Origin: an uncultured Bacilli bacterium
Lineage (GTDB): Bacteria; Bacillota_I; Bacilli_A; RF39; UBA660
Length of the DNA stretch: 64,000 bases
Reading direction: 5' to 3'
NCBI GenBank assembly: GCA_934130405.1
Contig: CAKOXX010000001.1
Span: 11,566-75,565, forward strand
Every line of letters starts with the position of its first letter. The first letter of the stretch is position 1. The position numbers and the translations under genes are program-made. Shown in pieces: positions 40,110 to 60,559 of the stretch. Below the pieces are notes generated by a model. It searched no databases. It was not told the origin of the DNA and worked only from the letters and a program-made list of their open reading frames with translations.

Positions 40110-41560
40110 TATTCTTCACCTCCAATTTGCCCTTTAAGCCCTGTTAATTTTTCTATTTCATTAGCAATATTTAATACTTTCTTGTCTTCTTTTATACCAC
40201 TAGTAATATTAATACCAATCGGACAATCACTGACAAAACCAGATGGAATAGTAATTGATGGAAAACCACCAAAGTTTCCTAAAGCCATATGATTTTCTAG
40301 TAATAAATATTTATCACTTAATTTATCGGTAGCATCAGAAAACTTTGGAGCAGCTCCACCACTACAAGGTAAGATAAGACCATCATAAGTAGTGAATAAT
40401 TCTGTTAATTTTTCTACTAACAGTCTTCTAACACGACAAGCATTTAGATAAAGTTTTTCTTGATTTTCTTTTTGTAAAATATAACTTCCTAATACAAAAC
40501 GACGTTTAATAAGTTCTGAGAAGCCTTCTGTTCTAGTAGCAATTATTAAGGAATTAACGTCATCTTTATTAACTCTATTTCCAAAAGCTATACCAGTTAA
40601 GTTAGAATTATTACTAGTAGCTTCCGCACAAGAGATGGTCATATAAGTTGGATATATCGCTTCTAATAAGGCTTTATCAATTGATACTTCAACAACTTCT
40701 ACTCCTCTAGTTTTTAATCTTTCTAATAAAGAATAAAAATTATCTAAAACTTCCATTAGTTCTTTATCATCAGTATCATATAAGCTTCGATCAACTATTT
40801 CTTTAATATAGAATAGTTTTTTACCAGCAAGTGGTTCATCAATATTTTCTAATAAATCACTATCATCTTGATAAGTTGTCATATCATGAATGTCATAACC
40901 TTTAATAGTGTTAATAACAGTTGCTACATCTTTAACACTTCTTGCAAAACAACCAACATGGTCAAGACTTGATGCAAAAGCAAATAAACCATAACGTGAT
41001 ACCAAACCATAAGTCGGTTTAAAACCAACAACGCCACCGAAAGCAGCTGGCTTTCTAATAGAGTCCCCCGTATCGCTTCCAAGTGCAAAAGGAACTATTC
41101 CTAAAGATACAGCAGCAGCACTTCCAGCACTAGAACCACCGATTTCTCTTGTTACGTCATAAGGATTTCTAACAATACCAGTATGTCCAGTAGTACCAGT
41201 TCCTCCCATCGCTAATTCATCAAGGACTGTTTTCCCAACTAAGACTGCTCCAGCATTTTTTAATTTTTTATAAACGGTTGCATCATAAACTGGAACATAG
41301 TTCTTTAAGATGTTACTAGAAGCAGTTGTTAAGATATTGCTAGTAGAAATATTATCTTTCAAAGCATATGGTATTCCTGCTAACGGACTAGTTCTTTTCT
41401 TTATCTTGCATTTATCACAGATAGTAACAAAAGAATTATAAGTAGCTTGATATTTATGGGCAAGTTGATTTGCTTCATTAAATAACTCCTCACTAGTAAC
41501 ATTTCCATTATCAAGTTCATATCTTAAATCGCTAATTAAACTTTTTCTATAATTCATCAC
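40109..41560 (-). CDS. gatA: Asp/Glu-tRNA amidotransferase subunit A
   Basis: Amidase signature GGSSAGSAAAV; 483 aa. Confidence 0.95.
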   Translation of the reverse strand: MMNYRKSLISDLRYELDNGNVTSEELFNEANQLAHKYQATYNSFVTICDKCKIKKRTSPLAGIPYALKDNISTSNILTTASSNILKNYVPVYDATVYKKLKNAGAVLVGKTVLDELAMGGTGTTGHTGIVRNPYDVTREIGGSSAGSAAAVSLGIVPFALGSDTGDSIRKPAAFGGVVGFKPTYGLVSRYGLFAFASSLDHVGCFARSVKDVATVINTIKGYDIHDMTTYQDDSDLLENIDEPLAGKKLFYIKEIVDRSLYDTDDKELMEVLDNFYSLLERLKTRGVEVVEVSIDKALLEAIYPTYMTISCAEATSNNSNLTGIAFGNRVNKDDVNSLIIATRTEGFSELIKRRFVLGSYILQKENQEKLYLNACRVRRLLVEKLTELFTTYDGLILPCSGGAAPKFSDATDKLSDKYLLLENHMALGNFGGFPSITIPSGFVSDCPIGINITSGIKEDKKVLNIANEIEKLTGLKGQIGGEE

Positions 41561-41855
41561 TATCCACCACCCTTGGTACTTTTACTTGATCTCTTACTTG
41601 ATGATCTGTATTAGCTAATACCTCACTGACAGAAAGCATTTCCATTTCATTTACTTCGTCATTTCTTAATTTTGCTTCGTTTGAAATGTACGGATAAAAT
41701 AATGGTTCTATCTCTTTAATGTTAGGTATATTTTCAATTAATTCCATCTGTTTAAGAATTGTTGCAAATTCATCTTGCAATGTTTCATATTCATTATCAT
41801 CCATATCAAACATTAGCTTTCTAGCATAATCTTTTAACATTTCTTTAGTTATCAC
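41547..41855 (-). CDS. gatC: Asp/Glu-tRNA amidotransferase subunit C
   Basis: A GTG start at 41855 (AAAGGA 8 nt upstream) gives (M)ITKEMLKDYARKL..., a typical GatC N-terminus of about 102 aa. The upstream part of the tracked ORF is the T-box leader. Confidence 0.8.
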   Translation of the reverse strand: MITKEMLKDYARKLMFDMDDNEYETLQDEFATILKQMELIENIPNIKEIEPLFYPYISNEAKLRNDEVNEMEMLSVSEVLANTDHQVRDQVKVPRVVDSDEL

Positions 41856-41877
41856 TTTATCAGTCCTTTCTTTTTTG

Positions 41878-42108
41878 AAAACGAAAAAGACTCTAAATCC
41901 CAGTAAAGGGACGAGTCTTTTACCCGCGGTACCACCCAATTTATTATCGGTTAGATAATCGCTTATCTTGTTAACGGGAACTACCCGGCTTAGTCTACTT
42001 TGTTCTTTAAGCACTCCGAAGTGTTATTCGTAAATACTTTATCTTAACTGTTTTCACCAACCACAGCTTCTCTTATAAGTAAAGTATTCCTACTCGTCTT
42101 CATCAACG
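41878..42108 (-). promoter_or_regulatory. T-box riboswitch leader, probable Asn (AAC) specifier
   Basis: On the minus strand: Stem I with GA/K-turn (TGATGA), AGTA, AGAGA and GGTGAAA elements. Specifier loop is ...CGAAT-AAC-A-CTTCGG (codon at 42025..42023). T-box sequence AATTGGGTGGTACCGCGGG lies at 41942..41924. Terminator is AAAGACTC...GAGTCTTTTTCGTTTTC. Confidence 0.85.
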
Positions 42109-42223
42109 TTTTCTAATAAATTTTACAATGATATTTTATAATTTGTCAATTATTTATATAAATTTTTTGAAAAATTTATTATTTTAGTTTTTACAATTTG
42201 TAGCTAATTATACATGTCATATG

Positions 42224-43580: not shown

Positions 43581-44756
43581 TCAAGAAATATCAATTACAT
43601 CATAATAACTAGTCTTACCAGTATAGTTTACATCACTAATAGGAGTTTTAACTCCACTTTCACTATATTCTATATAATCAATTAAATGCTTATCACACCA
43701 CTCTTTACTTGGTTCATTACCTTCTCCAAACATTAAAGTTAAATCTATAATCATATAATCTTTAAAAGTAAACTCTGCCCAATCATATGATTCTATGTAA
43801 AAATGGTCATTTTCACTATTAGAAACGACAATTCCAGTATATATTCCTGTTGCATTAGGACTATAAATGAATTGAGTTTTTGGCCAATATTCTATTCCGT
43901 CTATTACTGTTTTGTGTGCAAATTCAAGTATTTTTTCCAAATTATGTCCCAACTTTTCAACTATAGATAATATATTAACATTATAATAATAATTGTGCCC
44001 AACACTTTTCATACTAGAAGCTGTCATCGCTATAGAATTACCCAAATAAGTAAGTCCATCAGTTGATAAAGTATAAGAGTCATCAGAATTCACTATTAAT
44101 TTTGCATATGTGCCTTTCCTAACAACTGCTATATTATTTTTTAATACATAATATTTTCTACATTCTCCATCTACGTAATAATTTCCTCCTGCATCTTGAC
44201 ACTTTTTATTTAAACTTTCTTCATTAGTTGATGCTCCTTCTATTCTAAGTTTTGCTTTAAAGACTTTATTTTCTTCTTCAGCTGTCATATCGCTTGAAAA
44301 CCATAATCTTAATTTATAGTTAATAGTTTGTCCACTATTAATTATTCCACTTTCTAGTTTTTGATTTCCTGTTAATGACTTAGCAACATTATTAGAACTA
44401 TCTCTTTCCAAACTATAATGAACATATTTCTGATCAATTCTAACATCACCTTCATCTAGTGGTTGATTATCTAAATAGATTGTATATGATGATGCTACTT
44501 TACCATTATTAGTTAATTTAAATGAATAGTAATTATTTAAATTAACACCTTCACTATCTGATAATGGTCCATCTGCTGATACTGTTATCGCATTACCATC
44601 TGATTCATCTAATACAAGTGATAAACTTCCAACTTTCAGAACACTATCTTTAGTTGCAAAGAAACTAGTTTGCAAAAATGCATATGATATTCCTAAAATA
44701 ATAAATATCAATATTACTAATAATATAACTAAAAATATATTTTGTCCCTTTTTCAT
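43581..44756 (-). CDS. SipW/TasA-type signal, TasA-like N-domain protein with a unique C-terminal domain (391 aa)
   Basis: N-terminus KKGQNIFLVILLVILIFIILGISYAFLQTS...VLKVGSLSLVLDES...FKLTNNGKVAS resembles the TasA/CalY signal plus first beta-strands (GGTWAAFND...GTLDLS...FENNGSL). Confidence 0.6.
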   Translation of the reverse strand: MKKGQNIFLVILLVILIFIILGISYAFLQTSFFATKDSVLKVGSLSLVLDESDGNAITVSADGPLSDSEGVNLNNYYSFKLTNNGKVASSYTIYLDNQPLDEGDVRIDQKYVHYSLERDSSNNVAKSLTGNQKLESGIINSGQTINYKLRLWFSSDMTAEEENKVFKAKLRIEGASTNEESLNKKCQDAGGNYYVDGECRKYYVLKNNIAVVRKGTYAKLIVNSDDSYTLSTDGLTYLGNSIAMTASSMKSVGHNYYYNVNILSIVEKLGHNLEKILEFAHKTVIDGIEYWPKTQFIYSPNATGIYTGIVVSNSENDHFYIESYDWAEFTFKDYMIIDLTLMFGEGNEPSKEWCDKHLIDYIEYSESGVKTPISDVNYTGKTSYYDVIDIS

Positions 44757-44787
44757 TTTTTACCTCTTTCTAATATTCAAACAGCAC

Positions 44788-44819
44788 AAAAAAACAGAAT
44801 AAGCTTTTTCCTATTCCAT
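44788..44819 (-). terminator. Leader terminator-like hairpin 1
   Basis: Minus strand ATGGAATAGG-aaaaag-CTTATTCTGT (with G-U pairs) followed by T7, about 30 nt upstream of the gene start. Confidence 0.5.
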
Positions 44820-44850
44820 TACTTTTACACTATTAAAGAAAGCAGGTTTA

Positions 44851-44940
44851 TTACTTAATAAGTACCCCCCCCCAAGTTAATTTTAAGTTAACTTTTCTAG
44901 ACTTAAAAAGTGAGCAACTATTTTTAAAACAACTTTTCAT
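44851..44940 (-). CDS. Leader uORF 1 (29 aa) containing the G9 tract
   Basis: AGGTGA lies 6 nt before the ATG at 44940. Translation: MKSCFKNSCSLFKSRKVNLKLTWGGVLIK*. Confidence 0.5.
   Translation of the reverse strand: MKSCFKNSCSLFKSRKVNLKLTWGGVLIK
44865..44873 (-). repeat. Homopolymeric tract, C9 on plus strand (G9 in the transcript)
   Basis: Counted directly: agta-ccccccccc-aagtt. Confidence 0.95.
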
Positions 44941-45014
44941 AATTACTCACCTACTTTCTTTACTTTTATAGTTTATCACAGTTATTTTTGTATCTCAATA
45001 TATTTATTGAAATA

Positions 45015-46652
45015 CTATCCAATGGTAACAGTTCCTTTTCCTCCCAACTTATCTTCTAACCAAGCTTTAGTAGTTGCATCCTTAGTAATAATATTTATAT
45101 CTGATGCTACTAACGTAAATGTATTATCATAATTTGAAACAGATGTAAATACAGCTTTTCTTAAATCCAACCTTTTCAAACTTTTACACCAATTAAAAGT
45201 ATGAAACATATCAGTTACATTTTCTGTATTAAAACTACTAAGATTTAATTCTTGCAGATTAATATTAAAAGCAAACATATCACTCATTGTAGTAACTTTA
45301 CTTGTATCAAAACTACTTAAATCTAATTCAGTTAAAGAACCATAACTAGAAGTACCAAGATTTGTATCCCACATATTAAACATTGATGACATATCTGTTA
45401 CTTTTGATGTATCAAAACTAGATAAATTGATTGAGAACAATTTTTTACAATTACAAAACATCCCACCCATATTAGTTACATTACTAGTATTAAAATTACT
45501 CAAGTCTAGTGTTGTTAAATTCTTATCTCCGTTAAACATATGAAACATATCTGTTACTTTTGAAGTATTAAGATTGTCAATATTTAATGTCTGTAAACTC
45601 GTATTGTATGCAAACATATCTCGCATTATTGTCACGTTTGAGGTATCAAAACTACTTAAGTCTAATAAAGTTAAGCTACCAGTACTAGCAGCATCATCCG
45701 TTTTATTCCACATATTAAACATTCCATACATATTTGTAACTTTAGACGTATCAAAGTTACTTAAATCGATATTTAATAAACTTTTACAATTACTAAACAT
45801 TTGTGACATATCTGTAACCTGCGAGGTATTTAACAAAGTTAAATTTTCTATTGTTTTTAGTTCAGTAAAATAGTTAAATAGGTAACTAGAATTACTATTA
45901 GCAAATATTTCACCATTACTTTGGATATATAAAGTATTGGTACTATCATCGTTAGATACTATTTTACCAATAACACTATTATTATCATTTGCTGATAAGT
46001 CATAACTCTTAGTAGTGTTTTCTATATCATTTATTTTATCTTGAAATACTATCTTAGTAACTGTTTGTTTTTCTTCATCGATAAGTTTAAGAGATGATGC
46101 CATAGTATTAATATTTTGGCTAGCTTCTATTCTAAGTTTTGCTTTAAATACTTTATTTTCTTCTTCAGCTGTCATATCACTTGAAAACCATAATCTTAGT
46201 TTATAGTTGATAGTTTGTTTACTATTTATTATTCCACTTTCTAGTTTTTGCTCTCCAGTTAAAGACTTAGCAACATTATTAGAATCATCTCTTTCTAAAC
46301 TATAATGGACATATTCTTGGTCAATTCTGACATCACCTTCATCTAATGGTTGATTATCTAAATAGATTGTATATGATGATGCTACTTTTCCATTATTAGT
46401 TAATTTAAATGAATAGTAATCATTTAAATTAACACCTTCACTATCTGACAATGGTCCATCTGCTGATACTGTTATCGCATTACCATCTGACTCATCTAAT
46501 ACAAGTGCTAAACTACCTACTTTTAAAACATTATCATTACTTGCAAAGAAACTTGTTTGTAAAAATGCATATGATATTCCTAGAATAATAAATATCAAGA
46601 TTATAAGTAATATAATTAAAAATATATTTTGTTTATTAATCTTAGATTTCAT
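45015..46652 (-). CDS. TasA-like N-domain fused to BspA-type (DUF285) leucine-rich repeats (545 aa)
   Basis: The N-terminal ~180 aa are nearly identical to the 391-aa protein. The C-terminal part repeats LDLSxFDTSxVTxMxxMFxxCxxL, the DUF285/BspA LRR pattern. Confidence 0.7.
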   Translation of the reverse strand: MKSKINKQNIFLIILLIILIFIILGISYAFLQTSFFASNDNVLKVGSLALVLDESDGNAITVSADGPLSDSEGVNLNDYYSFKLTNNGKVASSYTIYLDNQPLDEGDVRIDQEYVHYSLERDDSNNVAKSLTGEQKLESGIINSKQTINYKLRLWFSSDMTAEEENKVFKAKLRIEASQNINTMASSLKLIDEEKQTVTKIVFQDKINDIENTTKSYDLSANDNNSVIGKIVSNDDSTNTLYIQSNGEIFANSNSSYLFNYFTELKTIENLTLLNTSQVTDMSQMFSNCKSLLNIDLSNFDTSKVTNMYGMFNMWNKTDDAASTGSLTLLDLSSFDTSNVTIMRDMFAYNTSLQTLNIDNLNTSKVTDMFHMFNGDKNLTTLDLSNFNTSNVTNMGGMFCNCKKLFSINLSSFDTSKVTDMSSMFNMWDTNLGTSSYGSLTELDLSSFDTSKVTTMSDMFAFNINLQELNLSSFNTENVTDMFHTFNWCKSLKRLDLRKAVFTSVSNYDNTFTLVASDINIITKDATTKAWLEDKLGGKGTVTIG

Positions 46653-46684
46653 ATTTAAATCATCTCTTTTCTCACTTGTATTAT

Positions 46685-48544
46685 TTATATCGCAAATGGA
46701 TTTAGAGCAGTTCCATCTCCCTTAATTATTTGAATATCTGCACGAAGACTTATAACTGGACGAACACTGTAGAGATTTGAGACATAACCCCAAGGATTCA
46801 GACTGCCCGAAGGAAGCACTCTCCAAACTTGTGCAACAGAGCTGTAAGACTCAAAGTTAGCCGGAGAGAGTGTCCAAAAATATTGTCCATTATATAGATA
46901 ATAATTACTGTTTGCTGTGTTATATATTCCGCCGGCCATTCCTACTTCATCTGCTGTAATAAGTGAAATTGGATAATCTAATTTAGCACTTTCATTTGAC
47001 ACTTTAAATTTATCATTATCTTGTGCACATTTTAAACTTGGTGCTTTCTTTTCATATAAACGTTCATATGTTCCATAAGTAGTAGTTGGTGGCGTTAAAT
47101 AACCATTACCCCAATTTATACTTCGATCATTACAGAATGTTTCATCTGCTAAATATGATGTATAACTTGTTAAATTGTTTTTATACCATGTATCTAGTGT
47201 ATTCTTCATTGTATTGTTTGTATTATTTGTTACTGCATCGGCATAACTATCACTGCTATAAGAAATTGGTTGGACTATCATTGTTGTATCATTTGAATAT
47301 CCTGTGATTTTATATACTACATTACAACTTGTATTTAAACAACTATATAGTTTTCCTGATACAATTTCATCCGAATTATCTTTCCAAGTTAATTGTTTGG
47401 TAGTTCCGGTTAATGTGAATTTTTTTGTTGTTTCATCAAAAGTGTATCCTGTTCCAAAGTTATATTTTGAGGTATTAGCAAACCAATTGTAACCTGTTGT
47501 TCCATTATTTTCATGTAGAGAAAACTTTTCATTATATTTATATCCGACATAAGTTGGATCCCAATATTTTTCATTAAACACTGAATTACCTATGTTTGTA
47601 GCAGTTCCTGTATCTGACGTTGTTTTTCCTGAATAAATCATTCTGATACTTCCATCTCCATTACGACGGATAATTCTCCAAGTATATCCTGCAAATGATA
47701 CATAGTTATTTTTCACTGCTCCTCTATAATAGTAGCTGTCTCCCTCATCATCCTCTGCCATGAATAAACCCTCATCGGTAGTAGCAGTTTTAGAAAAGTC
47801 TGGGGTTCCTTTGGCATTTATATTAGTCTTGGCACTTTCTACTGATATTTCATGATTGTTCATTACTAACATACAATCTGATAAAGTATTAAATCCATTA
47901 TCTTTGCAATAGGTATCTTCTACTTCTGCTACGGTATCTGAGGTTTGTCCGTAAACATTTACTTTTACTTTATATACTAATCCACCGTTATCACTTTGTG
48001 GATTATAACTTTCATCTACCCATAGTCTTAATCGATATTTGATTTCTGTATCTCCTTGTTGATTTAAATTTCCTACAAATAAACTCATCATATCTGATGG
48101 GCGACCAGTATAAACATTTCCAGTTGGGTCTTCTGAATAAGTTTTTGGTGGCATTGCTTCTTCTTCAGTACCATCGGAATTAACTTTCGTAAGATATAGT
48201 TTGATATTCTTTCCATCAAAGGTGTTTCCATTCTCTTCTTTCACTGCTATCTCATAGTTAATATCTGTATTCCCTGCTATTGATGATTTAATGGTAAAAT
48301 CAAAATATTCTCCAGAATTAAGTCTTTTCTTTCCAGTCGTATCGGTCGTCGGAAGAGCATTACTCATAGATATAATATTAGTACTTTCTGTATAATTCAT
48401 CGTTATTGCTCCAGTAGTTATGGTATTCAACTTTTGACCTATTCCTGAATAGTTAAATGCTGCATAACTGATACCAATAACAGCAATTAGTAAGATAAAA
48501 GTTGTTCCGATAGTTAATATATTTTTAAACTTTTGTTTATTCAT
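46685..48544 (-). CDS. SipW/TasA-type signal surface protein (619 aa)
   Basis: GISYAAFNYSG...ITTGAITMNY closely resembles TasA GGTWAAFND...ASGTLDLS. The C-terminal end ...VRPVISLRADIQIIKGDGTALNPFAI is shared with the 503- and 495-aa paralogs. Confidence 0.65.
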   Translation of the reverse strand: MNKQKFKNILTIGTTFILLIAVIGISYAAFNYSGIGQKLNTITTGAITMNYTESTNIISMSNALPTTDTTGKKRLNSGEYFDFTIKSSIAGNTDINYEIAVKEENGNTFDGKNIKLYLTKVNSDGTEEEAMPPKTYSEDPTGNVYTGRPSDMMSLFVGNLNQQGDTEIKYRLRLWVDESYNPQSDNGGLVYKVKVNVYGQTSDTVAEVEDTYCKDNGFNTLSDCMLVMNNHEISVESAKTNINAKGTPDFSKTATTDEGLFMAEDDEGDSYYYRGAVKNNYVSFAGYTWRIIRRNGDGSIRMIYSGKTTSDTGTATNIGNSVFNEKYWDPTYVGYKYNEKFSLHENNGTTGYNWFANTSKYNFGTGYTFDETTKKFTLTGTTKQLTWKDNSDEIVSGKLYSCLNTSCNVVYKITGYSNDTTMIVQPISYSSDSYADAVTNNTNNTMKNTLDTWYKNNLTSYTSYLADETFCNDRSINWGNGYLTPPTTTYGTYERLYEKKAPSLKCAQDNDKFKVSNESAKLDYPISLITADEVGMAGGIYNTANSNYYLYNGQYFWTLSPANFESYSSVAQVWRVLPSGSLNPWGYVSNLYSVRPVISLRADIQIIKGDGTALNPFAI

Positions 48545-48575
48545 AAAGACTTATTCCTTTCATTTTGGTATACAC

Positions 48576-48618
48576 AAAAAAGATAGATTTATATTATCAG
48601 TGATATTAATCTATCTTT
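48576..48618 (-). terminator. Leader terminator-like hairpin 2
   Basis: Minus strand AAAGATAGATT-(18-nt loop)-AATCTATCTTT followed by TTTTGTG. Confidence 0.5.
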
Positions 48619-48654
48619 ATTCCACGATAAAAGAAAGTAAGTCTTTTTCTTAAA

Positions 48655-48711
48655 TTAGTAAGTACCCCCCCCCCACGTTAATTTCTGGTTAACTTGAGTC
48701 AATCGATACAT
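48655..48711 (-). CDS. Leader uORF 2 (18 aa) containing the G10 tract
   Basis: AGGTGA lies 5 nt before the ATG at 48711. Translation: MYRLTQVNQKLTWGGGTY*. Confidence 0.5.
   Translation of the reverse strand: MYRLTQVNQKLTWGGGTY
48665..48674 (-). repeat. Homopolymeric tract, C10 on plus strand (G10 in the transcript)
   Basis: Counted directly: agta-cccccccccc-acgtt. Confidence 0.95.
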
Positions 48712-48794
48712 ACTAATCACCTACTTCCTATTTTTTATTATCAGTATTCTTGACATCTTAATAATATCATAATCTTTGAAATTTTACAATTAAT

Positions 48795-49226
48795 TTATCT
48801 TGATAAAGTTTCATTATAATTTTCTAAGAAAAAATAGTCTTGGTTTTTAAAGTCACAGATAAAATAATTATTATTTAAACTATTAAGTATCTTTAGAAAA
48901 AAAGAATTATAGTAATTAGTCTTTAATCTCATATAACTTCTCTTCACAATTAAAGACCCAATCTCATCATGACCTGGTTCGTTATAGTAATGCACCCCTT
49001 TTCTCTTACTATAAGGAATAGATTGATGATACTTAATAAAGATATGTTGGTCGATTTTCTCCTTATCAATCTTTTTAGTCAACTGATGAAATAAACTATA
49101 ACCATACTTAGCATTTTCTTCTCCTAAAAAATAAATTTGTTCTAATATCTGATACAGAATAGATGGCTTATCTTGATACAAACTTTTAAACTCATCCTTA
49201 ATCTCAAAAATAAAAAACTCTCTCAT
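48795..49226 (-). CDS. Hypothetical protein (weak resemblance to SirA/DUF2522)
   Basis: 143 aa. The overall pattern (FIFEIKDEF... ...FICDFKNQDYFFL) is reminiscent of Bacillus SirA, but this is only an impression. Confidence 0.35.
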   Translation of the reverse strand: MREFFIFEIKDEFKSLYQDKPSILYQILEQIYFLGEENAKYGYSLFHQLTKKIDKEKIDQHIFIKYHQSIPYSKRKGVHYYNEPGHDEIGSLIVKRSYMRLKTNYYNSFFLKILNSLNNNYFICDFKNQDYFFLENYNETLSR

Positions 49227-49275
49227 ATAATCACCACTGTAATCATATCAAGAGAGTCATAAGAACTTTGTCGAA

Positions 49276-51234
49276 TTATTTTAACAAAGCTTCTATCTTT
49301 AAAGAAATTTCTTCTTTCGTAAAACCATAGAAAGAATCAACTTCTTCTTTAGTTCCACTAGTACCAAATTTATCTAGTGTAAATAAATAACTATCTTTAT
49401 AAACAAAGGAATACCAAGAATAACTTGAACCTTTCTCAATAACAAACTTCTTCGCTCCAACTGGGAACAATTCTTCTTTTTCTTCTGCTGTTAATAAATT
49501 ATATCTTTCGATTGAAGGCATACTTATTACTCTTAAGTCATAGCCTTTTTCTTTAAGTAACTTCATAACACTTAAAGCAAGTGTCACTTCTTCCCCGGTA
49601 GCAATAATAATTCCGTCTAGTTTACGCTCTTCATTATGAACAATATAAGCTCCTTTACTAGTAGCAGAAATTGAAGTTGTTTCTAATATTTTAATCTTAT
49701 CTCTACCAAGTATTAAACAACTAGGTTTATTATTTTCAAAAATTGTTTTAAAAGAACCAATTACTTCGTTAGAATCAGCTGGACGAAATACTTCTAAATT
49801 AGGAGTTGCTCTTAAACTAACTAATTGTTCTACTGGTTGATGTGTTGGTCCGTCCTGACCGATAGAAATAGAGTCATGCGTAAAGATGTAAGTAACTGCT
49901 AGATTCATCAAAACTGAAAGACGAAGAGCTGGTTTTAAGTAATCACTAAAACTTAGAAAGGTTGAGACAAAAGGACGATAACCAGCAAGAGCTAGTCCAT
50001 TAGCAATCGCTGCCATTGCGTGTTCTCTAACACCAAAGTTAATATTTCTTCCCTTATAGTTATCCTTAGAAAATGGTGATAACTCATTTAAATACATTTT
50101 AGTAGAAGATGAAACATCAGCATTTCCTCCAATAATTAATGGACTAATAGTGGCATAAGAATTAAGGACTTTCTTAGCACTAATTCTTAGTAATTCTTCA
50201 TTATCATCAGGTTTATTATAATCAAGTGAGGTAAGTTTAATAGATTTATCTTTATCCATCAACTTATTCAAAAGACTAACTTCATCACTTTCTAAAGTTT
50301 CTAATTTAGTATCAAAATCTACTGTTAAGTCTTTATTTCTTTCCTTAATATAATTTCTAAACTCTTCTACTGCTTCATTACTAATCGTAAAAGGAATATC
50401 ACGAACACCAAGACTAGTTTTAATCTTCGAAATTTCTTCTTCACCTAAAGGACCAGAATGAACTTTATTACTACCTGCTAGCAGTGAACCTTTACCAATC
50501 GTTGTTATAACTTCAATAAGAGTTGGTTTATCGGCAGACTTCGCTTTAATAAGAGCATTATTAATATCTTCTACACTATCAGATGTAAATAATACATTCC
50601 AGTTCATACTTTCAAATCTAGCAGCAATATCTTCATCAAAAACATTTTCCGTTTTACCATCTAAAGTTACTTTATTAGAGTCATATAACACAATTAAATT
50701 ATTAAGTTTTAAACTACCCGCAAGAGAAGCTGCTTCATAGCTAACGCCTTCCATTAAGTCCCCATCACCACATAAACAATAAATATTATAATCAATTACT
50801 TTCTCTTTATTATTAATTAAAGAAGCGGTATGTTTTTCAGCAATGGCACACCCAACTGCTGTTGCAAAACCTTGTCCTAAAGGACCAGTCGTCATCTCTA
50901 CTCCTGGTGTTTTCATATATTCAGGATGACCTGGTGTCTTTGAATTAAGTCTTCTAAAAGATCTTAAATCATCAAGAGATATATCATAACCAGCAAAGTA
51001 TAATACTGAATACAAAAGACTTGAACCATGCCCTGCACTCATAATAAATCTATCTCTATTGTAAAAGTCTGGAACTTCTGGAGCAAATCTTAAATGTTCT
51101 AAAAACAAAGTATAAAGTATAGGAGCAGCTCCTAAAACAATACCTGGATGACCACTTCCTGCTTCTTCAATCATATCAAGACCAAGTGACTTTATCTCTC
51201 CGATTATTTTCTCTTCTAATTTCTTTGGTAACAT
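49276..51234 (-). CDS. tkt: Transketolase
   Basis: GSGHPG, CGDGDLMEG, and the ThDP/pyrimidine-binding domains; 652 aa. Confidence 0.95.
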   Translation of the reverse strand: MLPKKLEEKIIGEIKSLGLDMIEEAGSGHPGIVLGAAPILYTLFLEHLRFAPEVPDFYNRDRFIMSAGHGSSLLYSVLYFAGYDISLDDLRSFRRLNSKTPGHPEYMKTPGVEMTTGPLGQGFATAVGCAIAEKHTASLINNKEKVIDYNIYCLCGDGDLMEGVSYEAASLAGSLKLNNLIVLYDSNKVTLDGKTENVFDEDIAARFESMNWNVLFTSDSVEDINNALIKAKSADKPTLIEVITTIGKGSLLAGSNKVHSGPLGEEEISKIKTSLGVRDIPFTISNEAVEEFRNYIKERNKDLTVDFDTKLETLESDEVSLLNKLMDKDKSIKLTSLDYNKPDDNEELLRISAKKVLNSYATISPLIIGGNADVSSSTKMYLNELSPFSKDNYKGRNINFGVREHAMAAIANGLALAGYRPFVSTFLSFSDYLKPALRLSVLMNLAVTYIFTHDSISIGQDGPTHQPVEQLVSLRATPNLEVFRPADSNEVIGSFKTIFENNKPSCLILGRDKIKILETTSISATSKGAYIVHNEERKLDGIIIATGEEVTLALSVMKLLKEKGYDLRVISMPSIERYNLLTAEEKEELFPVGAKKFVIEKGSSYSWYSFVYKDSYLFTLDKFGTSGTKEEVDSFYGFTKEEISLKIEALLK

Positions 51235-51236
51235 TA

Positions 51237-51974
51237 CTATTCATCCTTCTTTCCTTTAAGTAAGCCTAAGAGAAGATGTTTTTTCTCTCTAGACATTTTT
51301 TCTAAATACTTGCCATTATCAAATTTGATAATATCTTTTTTAAAATCAACTGATGTTACTCTATCTAGATTAATTATACAATTTCTATATACTTGAAAAA
51401 ATCTATTATCTAACTGTTCTTTTATCTGAATTAAACTAAGCGGAACAGTATATTCGCCGTGAGAGGCATAAACCGTTGATGTTTTACTATCAGGGTCTCT
51501 TATGATGTAATAAATATGTTTAAGTTCAATTCTTGAGTAAACACGGTTCCGTTGATAAGTTAAACATCTATCCTTTCCACGATAACTTTTTAATACTATG
51601 TCTAAAACTTCATCCATCTTTTTAGTGCAACTATCGAGCTTATTAATAAAGTCTAAAACAAATAAGCGATTAGTAATTATTTCATAGCGATATTCACTAA
51701 AAGACGAAACTATTATGATGATAGAATTCCAATCTTCAATCATTTCTCTTATAAATCTAGCAGCATCTATTCCTGAACCATAGTTAGTTTTGATATCTAG
51801 AAAGTAGACTTTAAAGCCAATTTCTTTACCTGCTAATTTTTCAAAATCTTGATTATATCCCGCAAAAGTGTAAATCTTATACTCCATATCAGTTCTCATC
51901 ATATAGTTATCAATTTGATTTTTCATTCCTTGTCTAAAAAACTGATCATCATCACATATAATAAAATTTAACAT
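51237..51974 (-). CDS. LytTR-family response regulator (no adjacent histidine kinase)
   Basis: Receiver domain (ICDDD...FLDI) plus a C-terminal LytTR domain (...IYYIIRD...FFQVYRNCIINLDRV). Confidence 0.8.
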   Translation of the reverse strand: MLNFIICDDDQFFRQGMKNQIDNYMMRTDMEYKIYTFAGYNQDFEKLAGKEIGFKVYFLDIKTNYGSGIDAARFIREMIEDWNSIIIIVSSFSEYRYEIITNRLFVLDFINKLDSCTKKMDEVLDIVLKSYRGKDRCLTYQRNRVYSRIELKHIYYIIRDPDSKTSTVYASHGEYTVPLSLIQIKEQLDNRFFQVYRNCIINLDRVTSVDFKKDIIKFDNGKYLEKMSREKKHLLLGLLKGKKDE

Positions 51975-52043
51975 AGTGCCCCCTCCTATAGATTATTCTA
52001 ACACACTTGAAAAGGCAAAGTCTATATGCTCCAAAACCAGCAG

Positions 52044-53219
52044 TTATTTATATAAAATATCTAAATCTGTTAAGTTATTTATTCCATCTACTACTCCTCT
52101 ATCAGTCTTCTGCCAGATATTATATTCCTTCTGATAAGTAGTATTATTAGTATAATGTGCTAACCAAACAGGATAAGTATTATTAGTAAAAACATTTTCT
52201 AAATAGTATTTACTACCATAAAGCATTCCTTGATAACCTTCTTTCTCTACTGTTTCTAAGAAAGTATCAGCTATTTCTCCTAAATGGTAAAATGATAAGT
52301 TAAATTCTTGATAGAAAGAGAAGTTTTCCCAGTCAAAGACGATTGGCAGTTTAATGTCATAACCTTTAAGTTCTTTTAAAACCCAAAGAGCTTCCTTCTT
52401 CGCATCTTTTTTATCTTTAGCATAAGAATAGAAGTAAACGCCGGTCTTAATTCCTACTTTATTAAAGCCTTCAATATTTTCTTTAAACTTAGGGTCTAAG
52501 ACAAAGTCTTTATCAATTCCTTTTCTAGTACCAATTCTAATAAAAACGAACTCAACTCCAGCTTCTTTAACTTTTTCATAATCAATATCTTGTTGCCATT
52601 TAGAAACATCTATCCCAATTAAGGTATTAGCAGTTTTATTTTCTTGATAAAAATCTTTAAAAGCTATTTTTTCTTTCTCGCTACTAGGCACTTGGTAATC
52701 TTTCTTTTCTCTTACAGAGATGGTAAAGTCCTTTCTAGTAACATTTCCACTAGAATCAAGGGCTTCGTAAACTAACGGATAATCACCAACCGTATTAAAG
52801 TCATAATTACCAACTACTTGACAAGTCGGTTTATCATCATAGTTATCACCACAAAATACTTCTTTAGCAAAGTCTTCATCAGAACCTAAATCAACATAGT
52901 ATAAACTACTAAGGGAAATGACAGGAGGAATATCATCTACTACTTCATAAGTAAAAGTATAACTAGCAAGACGATTATCATCATTTTTATAAGTAAGAGT
53001 ATACTCATTCTTTCCGACCTTCTTGGTATTTAACTTTTCATTTTTATAAGTACCATTAATTGATTTAATAATATCATCTAGACTAGTATCACTATAAACT
53101 TGAAAAGTTAAGTCATCTGTTAAACTGACACTTACTGTTACTTCTCTTGTATTTAAATAGATAATACTTGCTATTAATAAACTAATAACTAGAAAGATAG
53201 CTAGTAAAGATTTTTTCAT
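52044..53219 (-). CDS. Membrane-anchored GH25 muramidase (lysozyme)
   Basis: N-terminal TM segment. GIDVSKWQQDIDYEKVKEAGVEFVFIRIG is typical of GH25. The start overlaps the mutS stop (ATGA). Confidence 0.8.
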   Translation of the reverse strand: MKKSLLAIFLVISLLIASIIYLNTREVTVSVSLTDDLTFQVYSDTSLDDIIKSINGTYKNEKLNTKKVGKNEYTLTYKNDDNRLASYTFTYEVVDDIPPVISLSSLYYVDLGSDEDFAKEVFCGDNYDDKPTCQVVGNYDFNTVGDYPLVYEALDSSGNVTRKDFTISVREKKDYQVPSSEKEKIAFKDFYQENKTANTLIGIDVSKWQQDIDYEKVKEAGVEFVFIRIGTRKGIDKDFVLDPKFKENIEGFNKVGIKTGVYFYSYAKDKKDAKKEALWVLKELKGYDIKLPIVFDWENFSFYQEFNLSFYHLGEIADTFLETVEKEGYQGMLYGSKYYLENVFTNNTYPVWLAHYTNNTTYQKEYNIWQKTDRGVVDGINNLTDLDILYK

Positions 53220-55777
53220 TCGTCTTTCTTCATCTCCTCTTTCAAACGATATAAAAAGTTTAAAGCGTCCATTGGACTCATTTCTAAAGGGTTAATTTCT
53301 TTAATTTTCTCAAGATACTTATTTTCTTTTTCTTCTTGCTCTTCTACTTCTTGGTCAAACAAGCTAGTCTGTGTATAAATAGTTTCTCTTTTTTCTTGAT
53401 TTTCATACACATTTAAGATTTCTTCTGCTCTTTTAATTAAAGATTTAGGTAAATCAGCTAAACTAGCAACATTAATACCATAACTCTTATCAACAGAACC
53501 ATTTTTAATCTTATGAAGAAATGTTAGTTTTCCATCTTCTTCGACAGCTGAAACGTGAACATTCTTTAGATGAGCTAAACTACTTGCAAGTTCTGTTAAT
53601 TCGTGATAGTGCGTAGAAAATAAAGTCTTAGCACCAATATTATCATGAATATATTCTAATATCGCTTGTGCCAAACTCATTCCATCATAAGTAGCAGTAC
53701 CACGACCTAACTCATCAAATAAAATTAAACTATTCTTAGTTGCACGTGATATCGCTAAGTTAGCTTCTTTCATTTCCACCATAAAGGTACTTTCACCACT
53801 AACTAAATCATCACTTGCTCCTATTCTTGTAAATATCTTATCAAAAACAGGAATAGTACAACTCTTAGCTGGTACAAAAGAACCTATCTGGGCCATAATA
53901 ACAGTAATAGCAAGTTGACGCATATAAGTAGATTTACCAGCCATATTTGGTCCAGTAATAAGTAAAATAGACGTATCTTTATCCATTATTATATCATTAG
54001 CAACATACTTTTCATTCTTCTTAGCCATTACTTCTTCTACTACCGGATGACGACTTTCAATTATCTTTACTTCATTCTTATCATTTAAGACTGGTTTTAC
54101 AAAGTGATAATTATCTGCTACAAAAGAAAGTGCTGATAACATATCAATCTCTGCTAGAATATTAGCACATTTCTGTAACGGTAAAATATATCTTTTAACA
54201 ACTTCTCTAATTTGCATAAACAGTTGATATTCTAAGTTAATTATCTTCTCTTCTGCTCCTAGAATAATACTTTCTTTTTCTTTTAATTCCTTAGTAGTAA
54301 ATCTTTCACAATTAGATAGAGTCTGTCTTCTATCATACCCAAACTCTTCTTTTACTAAATCACATTGTCCTTTACTAATTTCAATATAATAACCAAAGAC
54401 TTTGTTATAACCAACCTTTAAGTTCTTAATACCAGTTCTTTCTTTTTCTTTCTGTTCTAGTTCTAATAAGAAGTCTTTACTACCACTTGATAAGTCTCTT
54501 AACTCATCTAGTTCTTCATTATAACCTTTCTTGATTAAGTTTCCTTCTTTTAGAGAAATCGGTGGTTCTTCATTCAAACTATTATCAAATAAAGATACTA
54601 AATCATCAAAAGTTTCTATTTTTTTATCATATTTTATTTCTTCTAGTATTTTCTTAATAGTAGGTAGAGCTTTCAAACTAGAATTTAATTGTAATAAGTC
54701 TCTCGCATTTAAGTTACCATAACAAACTCTGCCGATAAGTCTTTCAATGTCATAGACTTGATTTAAGCTTTTCTTTAAGTCATCTCTTAAGATAAACTCC
54801 GTTTGTAATACTTCGATATAATGATAACGACGTTCTAGTTCTTTTCTATCTATTAAAGGAAACTCTAAGTTCTTTCTAAGTAATCTACTTCCCATTGCTG
54901 TTTGATTTTTATCAAGTAACCATAACAAACTATAAGTCTTTTCTCTAAGTCTAAGTGTTTCTGTTAACTCAAGATTACGTTTAGTATGTTCATCTAGTAA
55001 TAAATGTGCATTAATTAGTTCCACTTTTGCAGCTTGTAAATGCGATAAATCACCTTTTTTAGTATTAACAGTATAAGCAAGTAAGTGTTTAATTCCTCTT
55101 TCTTTTCGTAAGTCATTTAGCTCTTTATAAATATAACTATACTGTTCATCATCATTATAATCATTATAAATCGTAACATTTAACTGATAAGTCTTACGAA
55201 GAGTATTAATAAAGTTACGGTCAATTTCATCACTGACAATTATCTCCTCAAAACCATGACGAATAATCTCTTGTAATAATTCTTGTAAACTATCATCTAG
55301 AATTGTGACATAAACTTCTCCCGTAGAAATATCAGCATAACTTAATGCATACGAGTTGGCGGTATAAGTAACCGATGCTAAAAAGTTATTCTTAGTGTCA
55401 TCAATCGAACCATCTAGTCTTGTTCCACTAGTAACGATTTGAATTACTTCCCTCTTAACCATTTCTTTAGTAAGTTTAGGGTCTTCAACTTGCTCAACGA
55501 TTGCTACTTTATATCCCATTTCTACTAATTTATCTAAATATGCTTCATAAGCTTTAAAAGGAATACCACACATTGGTACTTTTTCTTCTAAACCAGCTTG
55601 CTTCCCTGTTAAAGTTAATTCTAATATCTTAGATGCCACAATAGCATCATCAAAGAACATTTCATAAAAGTCTCCTAAGCGAAAAAAAATAATCGCATCT
55701 GGATTTTCGTCTTTTATCTTCATCCACTGTAACATAACAGGGCTTAATTTAGTTCTATCTACTTCGTTTCTTAACAT
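53216..55777 (-). CDS. mutS: DNA mismatch repair protein MutS
   Basis: TPVMLQW-like N-terminus (SPVMLQWMKIK), Walker A TGPNMAGKST, and STFMVEM. Confidence 0.95.
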   Translation of the reverse strand: MLRNEVDRTKLSPVMLQWMKIKDENPDAIIFFRLGDFYEMFFDDAIVASKILELTLTGKQAGLEEKVPMCGIPFKAYEAYLDKLVEMGYKVAIVEQVEDPKLTKEMVKREVIQIVTSGTRLDGSIDDTKNNFLASVTYTANSYALSYADISTGEVYVTILDDSLQELLQEIIRHGFEEIIVSDEIDRNFINTLRKTYQLNVTIYNDYNDDEQYSYIYKELNDLRKERGIKHLLAYTVNTKKGDLSHLQAAKVELINAHLLLDEHTKRNLELTETLRLREKTYSLLWLLDKNQTAMGSRLLRKNLEFPLIDRKELERRYHYIEVLQTEFILRDDLKKSLNQVYDIERLIGRVCYGNLNARDLLQLNSSLKALPTIKKILEEIKYDKKIETFDDLVSLFDNSLNEEPPISLKEGNLIKKGYNEELDELRDLSSGSKDFLLELEQKEKERTGIKNLKVGYNKVFGYYIEISKGQCDLVKEEFGYDRRQTLSNCERFTTKELKEKESIILGAEEKIINLEYQLFMQIREVVKRYILPLQKCANILAEIDMLSALSFVADNYHFVKPVLNDKNEVKIIESRHPVVEEVMAKKNEKYVANDIIMDKDTSILLITGPNMAGKSTYMRQLAITVIMAQIGSFVPAKSCTIPVFDKIFTRIGASDDLVSGESTFMVEMKEANLAISRATKNSLILFDELGRGTATYDGMSLAQAILEYIHDNIGAKTLFSTHYHELTELASSLAHLKNVHVSAVEEDGKLTFLHKIKNGSVDKSYGINVASLADLPKSLIKRAEEILNVYENQEKRETIYTQTSLFDQEVEEQEEKENKYLEKIKEINPLEMSPMDALNFLYRLKEEMKKDE

Positions 55778-55871
55778 AAATTCACTTCCAATTTCTATTA
55801 CCTATTATAGCTAAGTTTTTGTTTTGAAACAAGAAATTTCGTGATAAAATAAGTACCGGGAGGTATTATCT

Positions 55872-57098
55872 ATGAATAGAGAACCATTAGCAAAAAAATT
55901 AGAACCAAAGTCTTTAGATGATGTTTTAGGACAAAAGCATTTAATTGGAAAAGGTGCTATTTTAAGGAATTTAGTGGAAAAGAAGAAATTAGTTTCAATG
56001 ATTTTGTATGGAAAACCAGGTATTGGAAAGACTTCTATTGCTAAAGCAATTGTTAATGATTTAGATATGCCCTATCGTTTTTTAAATGCAACTATTAATA
56101 ATAAGAAAGATTTTGATATGGTTGTAGAAGAAGCAAAGATTTATAACGGAATGATTTTAATTATGGATGAAATTCACCGTCTTAATAAAGATAAGCAAGA
56201 CCTACTTCTTCCGCAATTAGAAAGTGGTTTAATAACACTTATCGGTATGACAACTTCTAATCCTTATCATGCTATTAATCCGGCTATTAGAAGTAGATGT
56301 CAATTATTTGAACTTAAAGAGTTAGAAACAACTGATATTATTGAAGGTTTAAATAACGCAGTTAAGTCTAGTTATCTTGAAGGAATTAAGATTGATGATG
56401 ATACTATATCTTATATTGCTAATCTAGCAGGAAGTGATCTTCGTTATGCTTATAATTTATTAGAAATTGCGTTCTTTGCTAGTAATAACCAAAGGGTTGA
56501 TATTAAACTAGTTAAACAAATCAATTCTAAACCAGTCTTTTTTAGTGATAAAAATGGTGATGGGCACTATGACGTTTTATCGGCTTTTCAAAAGTCCATC
56601 AGAGGAAGTGATGTTGATGCTAGTTTATATTACTTAGCAAGACTTATCGTAGAAGAAGACTTAGATAGTATTTACAGGAGAATGAGTGTTATCGCTTATG
56701 AAGATATCGGTCTTGCTAATCCTAGTATTGGTCCAAGAGTAATGGCAGCAATAGCAGCAGCTGAGAGAATCGGTTTACCGGAAGCAAGAATTCCGCTTGG
56801 AACTATTGTTGTAGAAATGGCTTTATCGCCTAAGAGCAACAGTGCACATTTGGCACTTGATGAAGCAATTAACGATATAAGAAGCGGCAACACTGGGAAT
56901 GTACCTAATAATATAAAAACTGATTCTAAGGACTATTTATATCCACACGATTATCCTGGGGCTTATGTTTATCAAGAGTATTTACCAAAGAAGCTTAAAG
57001 GGAAAAAATATTATCACCCTAAAACGATTGGATATGAAAAAAATATCAAGAGTTATTATGACTTTATCGAAAATATGAAAAAGAAGGCTAATCACTAG
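55872..57098 (+). CDS. rarA: Replication-associated recombination protein A
   Basis: GKPGIGKTS Walker A, MDEIHR, and a MgsA C-terminal domain (HYDVLSAFQKSIRGSD). Confidence 0.9.
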   Translation: MNREPLAKKLEPKSLDDVLGQKHLIGKGAILRNLVEKKKLVSMILYGKPGIGKTSIAKAIVNDLDMPYRFLNATINNKKDFDMVVEEAKIYNGMILIMDEIHRLNKDKQDLLLPQLESGLITLIGMTTSNPYHAINPAIRSRCQLFELKELETTDIIEGLNNAVKSSYLEGIKIDDDTISYIANLAGSDLRYAYNLLEIAFFASNNQRVDIKLVKQINSKPVFFSDKNGDGHYDVLSAFQKSIRGSDVDASLYYLARLIVEEDLDSIYRRMSVIAYEDIGLANPSIGPRVMAAIAAAERIGLPEARIPLGTIVVEMALSPKSNSAHLALDEAINDIRSGNTGNVPNNIKTDSKDYLYPHDYPGAYVYQEYLPKKLKGKKYYHPKTIGYEKNIKSYYDFIENMKKKANH

Positions 57099-58623: not shown

Positions 58624-58644
58624 AAACTACCTCTTTCTACGCAC

Positions 58645-58677
58645 AAAAAACAGAATAAGATTAGATTCCTATCCTGT
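58645..58677 (-). terminator. Leader terminator-like hairpin 3
   Basis: Minus strand ACAGGATAGG-aatctaat-CTTATTCTGT (two G-U pairs) followed by TTTTTTGTG. Confidence 0.5.
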
Positions 58678-58714
58678 TTTTTTTACACTATTAAAGAAAG
58701 TAGTTTTCTCTACC

Positions 58715-58777
58715 TTATATAAGTACCCCCCCCCAAGTTAATTTCTGGTTAACTTGAGTTCCTAAGATATTTATCAT
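58715..58777 (-). CDS. Leader uORF 3 (20 aa) containing the G9 tract
   Basis: ATG at 58777. Translation: MINILGTQVNQKLTWGGVLI*. Confidence 0.5.
   Translation of the reverse strand: MINILGTQVNQKLTWGGVLI
58726..58734 (-). repeat. Homopolymeric tract, C9 on plus strand (G9 in the transcript)
   Basis: Counted directly: aagta-ccccccccc-aagtt. Confidence 0.95.
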
Positions 58778-58860
58778 ATTACCATCTACTTTCTTTTTAT
58801 TGTTCACTTAAATTTTATCATTTTTTTATCATCTATACAATATGTTTATTTTCTAAATTA

Positions 58861-60348: not shown

Positions 60349-60369
60349 AAACTACCTCTTTCTACACAC

Positions 60370-60402
60370 AAAAAACAGAATAAGATTAAATTCCTATCCT
60401 GT
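60370..60402 (-). terminator. Leader terminator-like hairpin 4
   Basis: Minus strand ACAGGATAGG-aatttaat-CTTATTCTGT followed by TTTTTTGTG. Confidence 0.5.
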
Positions 60403-60437
60403 TTTTTACACTATTAAAGAAAGTAGTTTTTTCTACC

Positions 60438-60500: not shown

Positions 60501-60559
60501 ATTACCCTCTACTTTCTTTTTATTGTTCACCTAAATTTTACCAAATATCATATAAATAT

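Follow-up and report, generated by a model that had tools for sequence, protein, structure and literature searches.

The DNA analysed here, a 64-kb stretch with 28.9% GC from contig CAKOXX010000001.1 of an uncultured Bacilli bacterium (hereafter the window), carries on its minus strand a two-gene operon (45015..48544) preceded by a leader in which a small upstream open reading frame (uORF) containing a tract of 10 guanines is followed by a hairpin. This leader, c48 or the 48-kb copy, has all its features on the minus strand, and the evidence presented throughout is sequence analysis. On this basis, c48 is probably one of four copies in the window of a phase-variable leader-peptide attenuator that reaches up to 15 copies in related genomes. 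The operon consists of a gene for a protein of 619 amino acids (aa; 46685..48544) and, starting 32 nt past it and without a leader of its own, a gene for a 545-aa protein (45015..46652) with DUF285/PARCEL repeats.

Reading c48 from 5' to 3', a promoter-like site (TTGTAA-17-TATTAT with a TG before the -10; 48761..48789), predicted by a consensus scan, is located just past the stop of a SirA-like gene and upstream of the uORF; a consensus scan also placed an equivalent predicted promoter (TTGAAT-17-TAAAAT) upstream of the leader at 60 kb. The uORF has a ribosome-binding site (RBS; AGGAAGTAGGTGA, 48717..48729) 5 nt ahead of its ATG, complementary to a downstream box and to the 5' flank of that box, and in the present register it encodes 18 codons, MYRLTQVNQKLTWGGGTY, from the ATG at 48711..48709 to the TAA at 48657..48655. 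Within it, a conserved core (GTTAACCAGAAATTAACGT, 48675..48693) stands directly 5' of the G10 tract (48665..48674), which is read directly from the letters, is predicted to be hypermutable and is the proposed switch. With G10 the reading is in phase 1, its stop ends 10 nt past the tract, and this short register is predicted to be the OFF state. At G9 the frame would continue into an extension read only in this long register (48606..48664), which crosses the box, and the resulting 34-aa peptide would end in WGGVLTNLRKRLTFFYRGIKID at the TAA 48608..48606, the codon with which the 5' hairpin arm ends. The box itself, GACTTA-CTTTCTTTT (48629..48643), resembles an anti-Shine-Dalgarno (anti-SD) sequence and pairs with both RBSs of the leader in duplex predictions. 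After it come a predicted intrinsic terminator (48576..48618) with an 11-bp stem (48618..48608 with 48589..48579), an inner 4-bp stem and U6 (-11.5 kcal/mol, z of -4.85), and the RBS region of the main gene, GAAAG-gaa-TAAGTC-ttt-ATG (48542..48561). An earlier note on this DNA had described the G10 tract, the 18-codon uORF, the G9 register and the 11-bp hairpin, and all of them are where it had placed them on the minus strand, its coordinates and translations being correct throughout.

The other three leaders, also on the minus strand, precede genes for proteins of 391 aa (the 44-kb copy, 44754..44960), 503 aa (the 58-kb copy, 58621..58800) and 495 aa (the 60-kb copy, 60346..60520). They carry G9 tracts (44873..44865, 58734..58726 and 60457..60449, respectively) with short-register uORFs (44940..44851, 58777..58715 and 60500..60438), and ON is predicted at G8 or G11 in all three. 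The hairpins of the window copies range from -8.4 to -15.6 kcal/mol (z of -3.5 to -7.1), each with a U-run. Only four G or C runs of at least 6 nt exist in the whole window, all of them inside these leaders, and the number of G8 runs expected in it by chance is 0.06. Rfam 15 gave no match at the gathering score in the window leaders and none at an E value of ≤1 in 48480..48820.

Leader types and the register rule

Relatives were collected with the pattern scan GTNAAYNNNAARYTNACNTG7, which returned 70 loci from a species-representative genome collection, about 64 of them in gut metagenome-assembled genomes (MAGs) named "uncultured Bacilli bacterium" (Hadza, other human and rabbit), and 32 further loci from a metagenome collection. 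After removal of duplicates there were 85 distinct leaders, belonging to four lineage-specific types. Type A, the window-like one, comprises 45 distinct leaders, with up to 15 copies per MAG, and has the uORF, the box and the hairpin. Type B (21 distinct leaders, 10 copies in one MAG) has the uORF and a hairpin of -20 to -28 kcal/mol, and type B' (8 distinct leaders, 8 copies in one MAG) also has a uORF and a hairpin. Type C, from rabbit (11 distinct leaders, 10 copies in one MAG), has no uORF and carries the tract in a promoter spacer. In every leader of types A, B and B', the tract lies inside a uORF with a strong Shine-Dalgarno (SD) sequence (a match of 5 to 9 nt) and an in-frame ATG, and there is no stop between this ATG and the tract. 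About 0.7 Mb of low-GC loci contain 106 G runs of at least 7 nt, of which 103 are in the motif and the other three are variants of it.

The reading frames past the tract follow one rule. Exactly one phase of the three is open in all 45 type A and all 21 type B leaders, for 46 to 72 nt, while the other two phases stop within 4 to 25 nt of the tract. The stop of the long register starts within the hairpin in 45/45 type A leaders (5' arm in 32, loop in 9 and 3' arm in 4) and in 21/21 of type B, and the short-register stops of type A end at least 24 nt (median of 31 nt) before the stem. The open phase can be 0, 1 or 2 and is set by small indels just past the tract, so that the tract length giving the long peptide differs between copies: G9 for c48 and its subtype, G8/G11 for the other three window copies, and G9/12 or G10/13 in type B. 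The earlier note had counted the indel of c48 among its compensatory changes, but it repairs nothing and merely reassigns the predicted ON length (G9 here, G8/G11 in the other three copies).

The hairpins differ in sequence between types and range from -7.5 to -27.9 kcal/mol, with a U-run after each of them. In an alignment of 21 type A leaders, the stem covaries: 96.6% of the cells are paired, four of the seven pairs show compensatory changes, and the covariation score is 0.427 compared to ≤0.20 in slid controls, with none of 500 shuffles scoring as high. The hairpin had been treated in the earlier note as scenery. With a U-run always present and a covarying stem, it is most likely an intrinsic terminator, on which the switch mainly depends.

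The core has the general form GTNAAY-N3-AAR-YTNAC-N-T in all leader types. Its reading frame differs between types A and B, which indicates that it is conserved as DNA or RNA and not as a peptide. In the form GTTAAC-N5/7-(A/G)TTNAC it is both a direct and an inverted repeat that can form a hairpin of 5 to 6 bp just 5' of the tract, as found in the four window copies (48675..48693, 44875..44893, 58736..58754 and 60459..60477); an RNA hairpin, a protein site or the remnant of a -35 are candidate roles. A site for a LytTR-type or other regulator in GTTAAC...TTAAC was considered and rejected, its 12-nt spacing being at odds with the 21-nt period of LytTR sites. A second conserved element, containing TGTCAAG (48733..48752; ATGTCAAGAATACTGATAAT), is located downstream of the predicted -10 and ahead of the uORF RBS in A1-type leaders, and it is found again upstream of the core in type C leaders (e.g., TTGTCAAGTTTACA).

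Tract lengths in the family range from G7 to G13, with a mode of G9 in type A and G10 in type B, and they vary between samples, which is the level at which all our length comparisons were made. An identical 619-aa protein behind an identical or near-identical leader is found with G9 in contigs L103, L104 and L105 and with G10 in the window as well as in L106 and L107; two of the G9 contigs, L103 and L104, have the long peptide of 34 residues annotated by the gene caller. Metagenome-scan orthologs, with near-identical leaders and an identical visible gene start, have G8 (L077) or G9 (L094 and L097). The 44-kb locus has G9 or G10 across samples, and the flanks of L010 (G13) and L014 (G11) are near-identical. 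At the 58-kb locus of sample ERZ27287248 (L109:491-498 and L112:2216-2223), TTT-G8 replaces TT-G9 (equivalent to 58726..58734 in the window). This case was rejected as a length change, since it is a G-to-T substitution at the edge of the tract that shortens it and leaves the frame unchanged. Altogether, the present tract length puts 12 of 74 leaders in the long register and 62 in a short one, which fits a family that is mostly OFF.

Proposed mechanism and the anti-SD-like box

In the mechanism that we propose, a promoter upstream of a strong RBS would drive the short uORF holding the slippage-prone G tract, with the intrinsic terminator about 45 nt past the tract and the main RBS after the terminator. 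In two of the three registers, a stop within 10 to 20 nt of the tract would release the ribosome at least 24 nt before the hairpin, the terminator would form, and the operon would be OFF. In the third register, open through the box and ending in the hairpin, the ribosome behind the polymerase would cover the 5' arm, leading to read-through and an operon that is ON. The ON length of c48 would be G9, leaving the G10 allele of the window OFF and one deletion away from ON, and the other three window copies, all G9, would be OFF and need G8 or G11. Type A leaders would have a second lock, in which the CUUUCUUU box of any read-through RNA pairs with the main RBS so as to enclose the hairpin at its base, a pairing that long-register ribosomes would also unwind.

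This geometry is the same as that of the pil1 and pil3 operons of Streptococcus gallolyticus, where GCAGA repeats lie in a leader-peptide open reading frame (ORF) and a terminator precedes the surface operon (Danne et al. 2014, PMC3894217). Alleles that are in frame stop there 28 to 39 nt before the terminator and give low expression, those that are out of frame stop within or after it and give high expression, and the effect depends on both translation and the terminator, a mechanism that has been proven experimentally (PMC3894217). From the shared geometry we infer the polarity (long register ON, short register OFF), the dependence on translation and the coupling of ribosome and polymerase. 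In the literature searched, leader-peptide frameshifting driven by a repeat and combined with attenuation was found for two S. gallolyticus pilus operons only.

The box is the segment to which the earlier note assigned a role, proposing that an anti-SD/SD helix and a T-F-F reading frame are both maintained in c48. In type A leaders CTTTCTTT is invariant in the 21-leader alignment A2 and kept in 44 of the 45 distinct sequences, L078 having TTTTCTTT. The block ACT-TTC-TTT does fall in the long register of every type A copy, whatever the phase, and all type A long registers read (T/A)-F-F, but this is not a conserved peptide: CTTTCTTT shows no synonymous third-position variants, and the next codon is AAT, CAT or TAT (N, H or Y). 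Nucleotides invariant even at third positions beside a codon that changes non-synonymously rule out conservation of the peptide and point to a constraint on the RNA. CUUUCU is also the usual 3' end of Firmicute 16S rRNA, and the box is, in our reading, a real RNA-level element that mimics the anti-SD.

The complementarities to the main RBS that had been described are all present: GACTTA+CTTTC (48643..48633) with GAAAG-gaa-TAAGTC (48561..48548) in c48, AACTA+CTTTCT with AGAAAG-agg-TAGTT in the 58- and 60-kb copies, and ACCT-g-CTTTCT with AGAAAG+AGGT in the 44-kb copy. The duplex of box and main RBS in c48 (-16.2 kcal/mol) beats those of the same box with all 47 ordinary RBS regions of the window (mean of -7.2, standard deviation of 2.6), and the four cognate duplexes of the window (-11 to -16.2 kcal/mol) are stronger than almost all of the 47 (average of about -7, standard deviation of 2.5). 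In the minimum-free-energy fold of the c48 leader (z of -4.5 and -5.25), the box plus its flank and the main RBS form a helix that closes around the hairpin base. In read-through RNA, the predicted unpaired probability of the main RBS averages 0.275 in type A compared to 0.49 in 47 control genes (Mann-Whitney P of 2.5e-8, uncorrected for relatedness), and the window copies have values of 0.19, 0.14, 0.01 (c48) and 0.11. In these models the box probably occludes the main RBS of read-through RNA, with long-register ribosomes unwinding the pairing.

The argument that this helix has been preserved by compensatory change, presented in the earlier note as the classic signature of a selected helix, fared less well. 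No position of the inner helix changes on both sides in the set of 34 distinct leaders, and CTTTCTTT is constant in 34 to 38 distinct relatives; the box being kept in all but one type A leader, this part carries no information. The outer helix, in the register with a 3-nt bulge, is paired in 49% of the cells, and its covariation score of 0.128 equals those of slid controls (0.132 and 0.130). A joint RNAalifold fold of the 21 leaders returned the terminator stem only and did not recover the anti-SD/SD helix. Same-gene orthologs of c48 keep the TAAGTC helix (L077, L097 and L103 to L107, with L094 using a G-U wobble), yet L001 and L063, in which the box flank is the same or nearly so, have no TAAGTC. 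Box:RBS pairing is at background level in 7 of 20 type A leaders, and cognate duplexes beat non-cognate ones by 0.6 to 0.9 kcal/mol (P of 0.0009 to 0.04, uncorrected for relatedness). The helix is thus plausible, given the low accessibility of the RBS and the strong duplex in c48, but the claim of covariation holds only weakly. Type B leaders have no such box, and the uORF, the register and the terminator geometry are nonetheless kept.

The box and its 5' flank are also complementary to the uORF RBS (AGAAAGTAGG or AGGAAGTAGG) in every type A leader. This duplex has a mean of -13.1 kcal/mol (range of -9.6 to -19.4; -12.9 in c48), is stronger and more uniform across type A than that with the main RBS, and is the one chosen by the minimum-free-energy fold of the 58-kb copy. 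The complementarity (48629..48643 with 48717..48729) extends to the unusual T in GAAAGTAGG, with a weak cognate specificity (P of 0.02 to 0.12). Given that leaders exchange their 5' and 3' halves at the core (see below), a generic pair of SD and 16S mimic would alone survive, which may explain why the box does not vary. We read box:RBS pairing as an accessory lock of type A and not as the core of the switch, and covariation does not demonstrate it.

Competing explanations and cassette exchange

The same core occurs in a different setting in type C. All 11 of these relatives have TTGACN-16-TATAAT around the core and tract, with neither uORF nor terminator, and the resulting sequence, TTGAC(N)-T-G9-NNNTTT-TATAAT, is a near-consensus promoter with a 16-nt spacer that becomes 17 nt at G10. 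Several of these leaders have merely about 30 nt to the RBS, and the proteins downstream have the N-terminal motif found in the other types. Examples are L007, L016, L017, L022, L027, L036, L044, L049, L052 and L064 (MAGs CANQIE01 and CANRHM01). Judged by its sequence, type C is a classical promoter-spacer switch made from the same module. In window-type leaders, a tract set between a -35 and a -10 spaced by 16 to 18 nt was not found, there being no consistent -10.

For the window copies, the alternative closest to the earlier note is a purely translational switch, in which the anti-SD hides the main SD until displaced by long-register reading, the hairpin is a spacer and the helix is kept by compensation. 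It would account for the fold of c48, where a helix of about 19 bp joins box and main RBS, for the strength of the window duplexes relative to ordinary RBSs, for the low accessibility of the type A RBSs and for the advantage of cognate over non-cognate duplexes. We nevertheless hold it to be unlikely, because the pairing does not covary beyond the slid controls, half of the outer helix is unpaired, RNAalifold does not predict it and a third of the type A leaders examined pair at background level. The boxless type B keeps the uORF, the register and the geometry of the terminator, the supposed spacer always has a U-run and covaries, and the box itself pairs better with the uORF RBS. The promoter-spacer arrangement of type C could also be extended to the window, with a -35 (TTAACG) just 5' of the tract, a -10 beyond it and an incidental uORF; c48 at G9 does read TTAACG-17-TAATTT. 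But a consistent -10 is lacking in types A, B and B' (mean score of 3.3 to 3.7 of 6, compared to 6.5 with bonus in type C), these types carry a strong RBS and ATG upstream of the tract, promoter-like sites exist upstream of the uORFs, and any transcript begun at the supposed promoter would run into the terminator and include the box all the same. With the -10 not conserved, this explanation was rejected for the window copies, where it is hardly credible, and retained for type C.

That 62 of 74 leaders are in a short register would make the family mostly ON if the polarity were reversed, with the long register OFF because, for example, the peptide is made or the terminated RNA stabilised, or if the tract acted at the RNA level through slippage or pairing of the G-run with the box; by inspection, G9-10 could pair with CUUUCUUU through G-U and G-C. 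The minimum-free-energy folds do not use this G-run:box pairing, and transcriptional slippage is best documented on A/T runs. As for polarity, a ribosome stopped in the terminator stem can only hinder the stem, and in the pil1 experiments the long register is ON (PMC3894217), so that we regard these variants as very improbable. A tract devoid of any regulatory role, the uORF and terminator forming an independent small gene or a decayed remnant and the length differences being assembly errors, has in its favour that Illumina assemblies can miscall homopolymers and that several contigs have a coverage of only 2 to 10x. However, the 10 to 40 nt from the U-run to the main RBS are too short for a promoter, the architecture is found ahead of more than 70 distinct paralogous surface genes from several species, these genomes (29% GC) have no other G-rich runs, and lengths range from G7 to G13 with a mode proper to each type; we give this explanation almost no credence. 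From the sequence comparisons, the leaders are best explained as a poly-G, multicopy variant of the pil1-type attenuator with an optional RBS lock.

Several observations weigh against the attenuator. Exactly one open register ending in the hairpin window is expected by chance with a frequency of 0.385 per independent AT-rich sequence, and there are only about six independent sequence clusters (P of about 0.003 for the register argument alone), which makes that argument moderate when taken by itself. It gains weight from the SD and ATG in every A, B and B' copy, from type-specific hairpins with a kept geometry and from the covariation of the stem. None of the approximately 39 type A leaders needing G8 or G11 is in the ON state. 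With -7.5 to -18 kcal/mol, the AU-rich hairpins of type A are weak, and a consensus terminator scan requiring three G-C pairs did not call them. The scan pattern for relatives required the core, so the sample covers only leaders that have it, and the conservation of the core among the relatives is partly by construction. Our main mechanistic reservation is that Bacillus subtilis is reported to uncouple transcription from translation, which would weaken a mechanism in need of a ribosome close behind the polymerase.

The genes downstream of the leaders share their beginning. In all types the products have a K/R-rich start, about 20 hydrophobic residues and G-[IVT]-[ST]-[YF]-A-[AFLY]-[FL]; in the 619- and 545-aa proteins the K/R-rich, hydrophobic N terminus ends in GISYA(A/F). 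The window genes with this N terminus are at 43581..44756, 45015..46652, 46685..48544, 57112..58623 and 58861..60348. Searches of the 619-aa protein against Pfam, NCBIfam and PDB sequences returned no family, and an AlphaFold model of a controlled protein, built on a shallow alignment of 29 sequences, was unusable (pLDDT of 37). The type B N terminus, GGTFAY(L/F)T, gave a subthreshold match to the SipW-type signal TIGR04088 (E value of 0.007, 16.5 bits compared to a cutoff of 19), and the downstream proteins may be TasA-like secreted or fibre proteins.

Leaders and genes also appear to be exchanged. L031 (species-representative MAG SUG1206) has a hybrid leader whose 5' half is that of the 48-kb copy and whose 3' half is that of the 44-kb copy, the two meeting within the 41-nt core (L031:1426-1466, equivalent to 48695..48655 and 44894..44854 of the window); the 3.8 kb that carries the 619- and 545-aa genes in the window is absent from it. 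This fusion at a shared core suggests that leader cores act as recombination points for the gain and loss of cassettes. L028 (CAKPDM01) is 97% identical to 48341..56331 of the window over 8 kb, and at the position of the 48-kb leader it has a divergent leader allele (G9, long register) followed by a different surface gene. These comparisons mark this position as a hypervariable site of cassettes, next to the conserved genes for a transketolase and a SirA-like protein. A short way downstream of the cassettes there is a canonical T-box leader (135.9 bits, 41904..42115, minus strand), which overlaps the start of a listed 155-aa GTG ORF (41547..42014), a start that is probably not real.

A wider interpretation, which we advance only tentatively and hold to be somewhat less probable than not, is that the core GTTAAC-N5-TTNAC-N-T-Gn is a portable switch cassette of an uncultured gut Bacilli lineage with two modes, attenuation by leader peptide and terminator in types A and B and a promoter spacer in type C, that it also serves as a crossover point at which surface-gene cassettes are gained, lost and shuffled, and that type A adds a universal 16S-mimicking anti-SD lock. 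In type A, the anti-SD could switch its pairing from one RBS to the other (uORF or main gene), so that frame, terminator and RBS would form a lock of three layers. Such a cassette would allow combinatorial variation of the surface coat, with 10 to 15 independently switching loci per genome, and sister lineages with the core in a promoter spacer would offer a rare view of one hypermutable module moving between two mechanisms. If the attenuator is real, its logic would not be the curiosity of one pathogen but a general homopolymer switch of a large family of paralogous surface proteins in uncultured Bacilli of human, Hadza and rabbit guts. The ON/OFF state of each locus would be readable from tract length in metagenome assemblies, and hundreds of unnamed proteins would be flagged as variable surface antigens of commensals. 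The leaders would also be a natural test of ribosome-polymerase coupling in low-GC Firmicutes.

Comparison with known systems

Hypermutable homopolymers that exert transcriptional control over surface genes are found in the promoter spacers of Neisseria meningitidis porA/opc, Bordetella fim and Mycoplasma hyorhinis vlp. Type C leaders are arranged exactly so, but the window tracts lie in a putatively translated uORF with no consistent -10 after it, and their readout would be the reading frame, with a period of 3, and not the length of a spacer. Variable poly-G tracts in mRNA 5' leaders that tune a surface or chemotaxis protein are present in Helicobacter pylori tlpB, the target of the small RNA RepG, and in Moraxella catarrhalis uspA1. 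Those tracts are untranslated and act through small RNA pairing or an unknown transcriptional effect, with neither a uORF register nor a terminator.

Two attenuators resemble individual steps of the proposed mechanism. In Escherichia coli pyrBI and pyrE, the leader ORF also extends into the terminator, and a ribosome close behind the polymerase blocks the hairpin without any antiterminator structure; there the coupling is physiological and reversible, set by polymerase pausing dependent on uridine triphosphate, whereas here it would be set by a heritable frameshift. In the translational attenuation of ermC and cat, drug-induced stalling positions a ribosome in the leader ORF and thereby frees the downstream RBS from a complementary upstream segment, and no terminator is involved. 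The box:RBS pairing described here is auxiliary and not universally kept, and a terminator is present.

The closest parallel is provided by pil1 and pil3 of S. gallolyticus, which have a simple-sequence repeat in a leader ORF and a terminator ahead of the operon for a surface structure, with a short peptide that stops some 30 to 40 nt before the hairpin and a long, frameshifted one that stops within or after it, so that the ribosome keeps the terminator from forming. Switching there is stochastic and heritable and controls surface appendages, a behaviour that we propose for the window leaders as well. There is no sequence homology between pil1 and these leaders, so the resemblance is one of mechanism and not of descent. 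The two systems also differ in several respects: 13 to 23 GCAGA units there and a homopolymer of G7-13 here; two of three registers long there and one of three here; two loci there and up to 15 per genome here; and sortase pili there and unnamed proteins with a TasA-like N terminus here. Finally, the host here is an uncultured gut Bacilli lineage, and its type A leaders have an anti-SD-like box that can occlude both the main RBS and that of the uORF.

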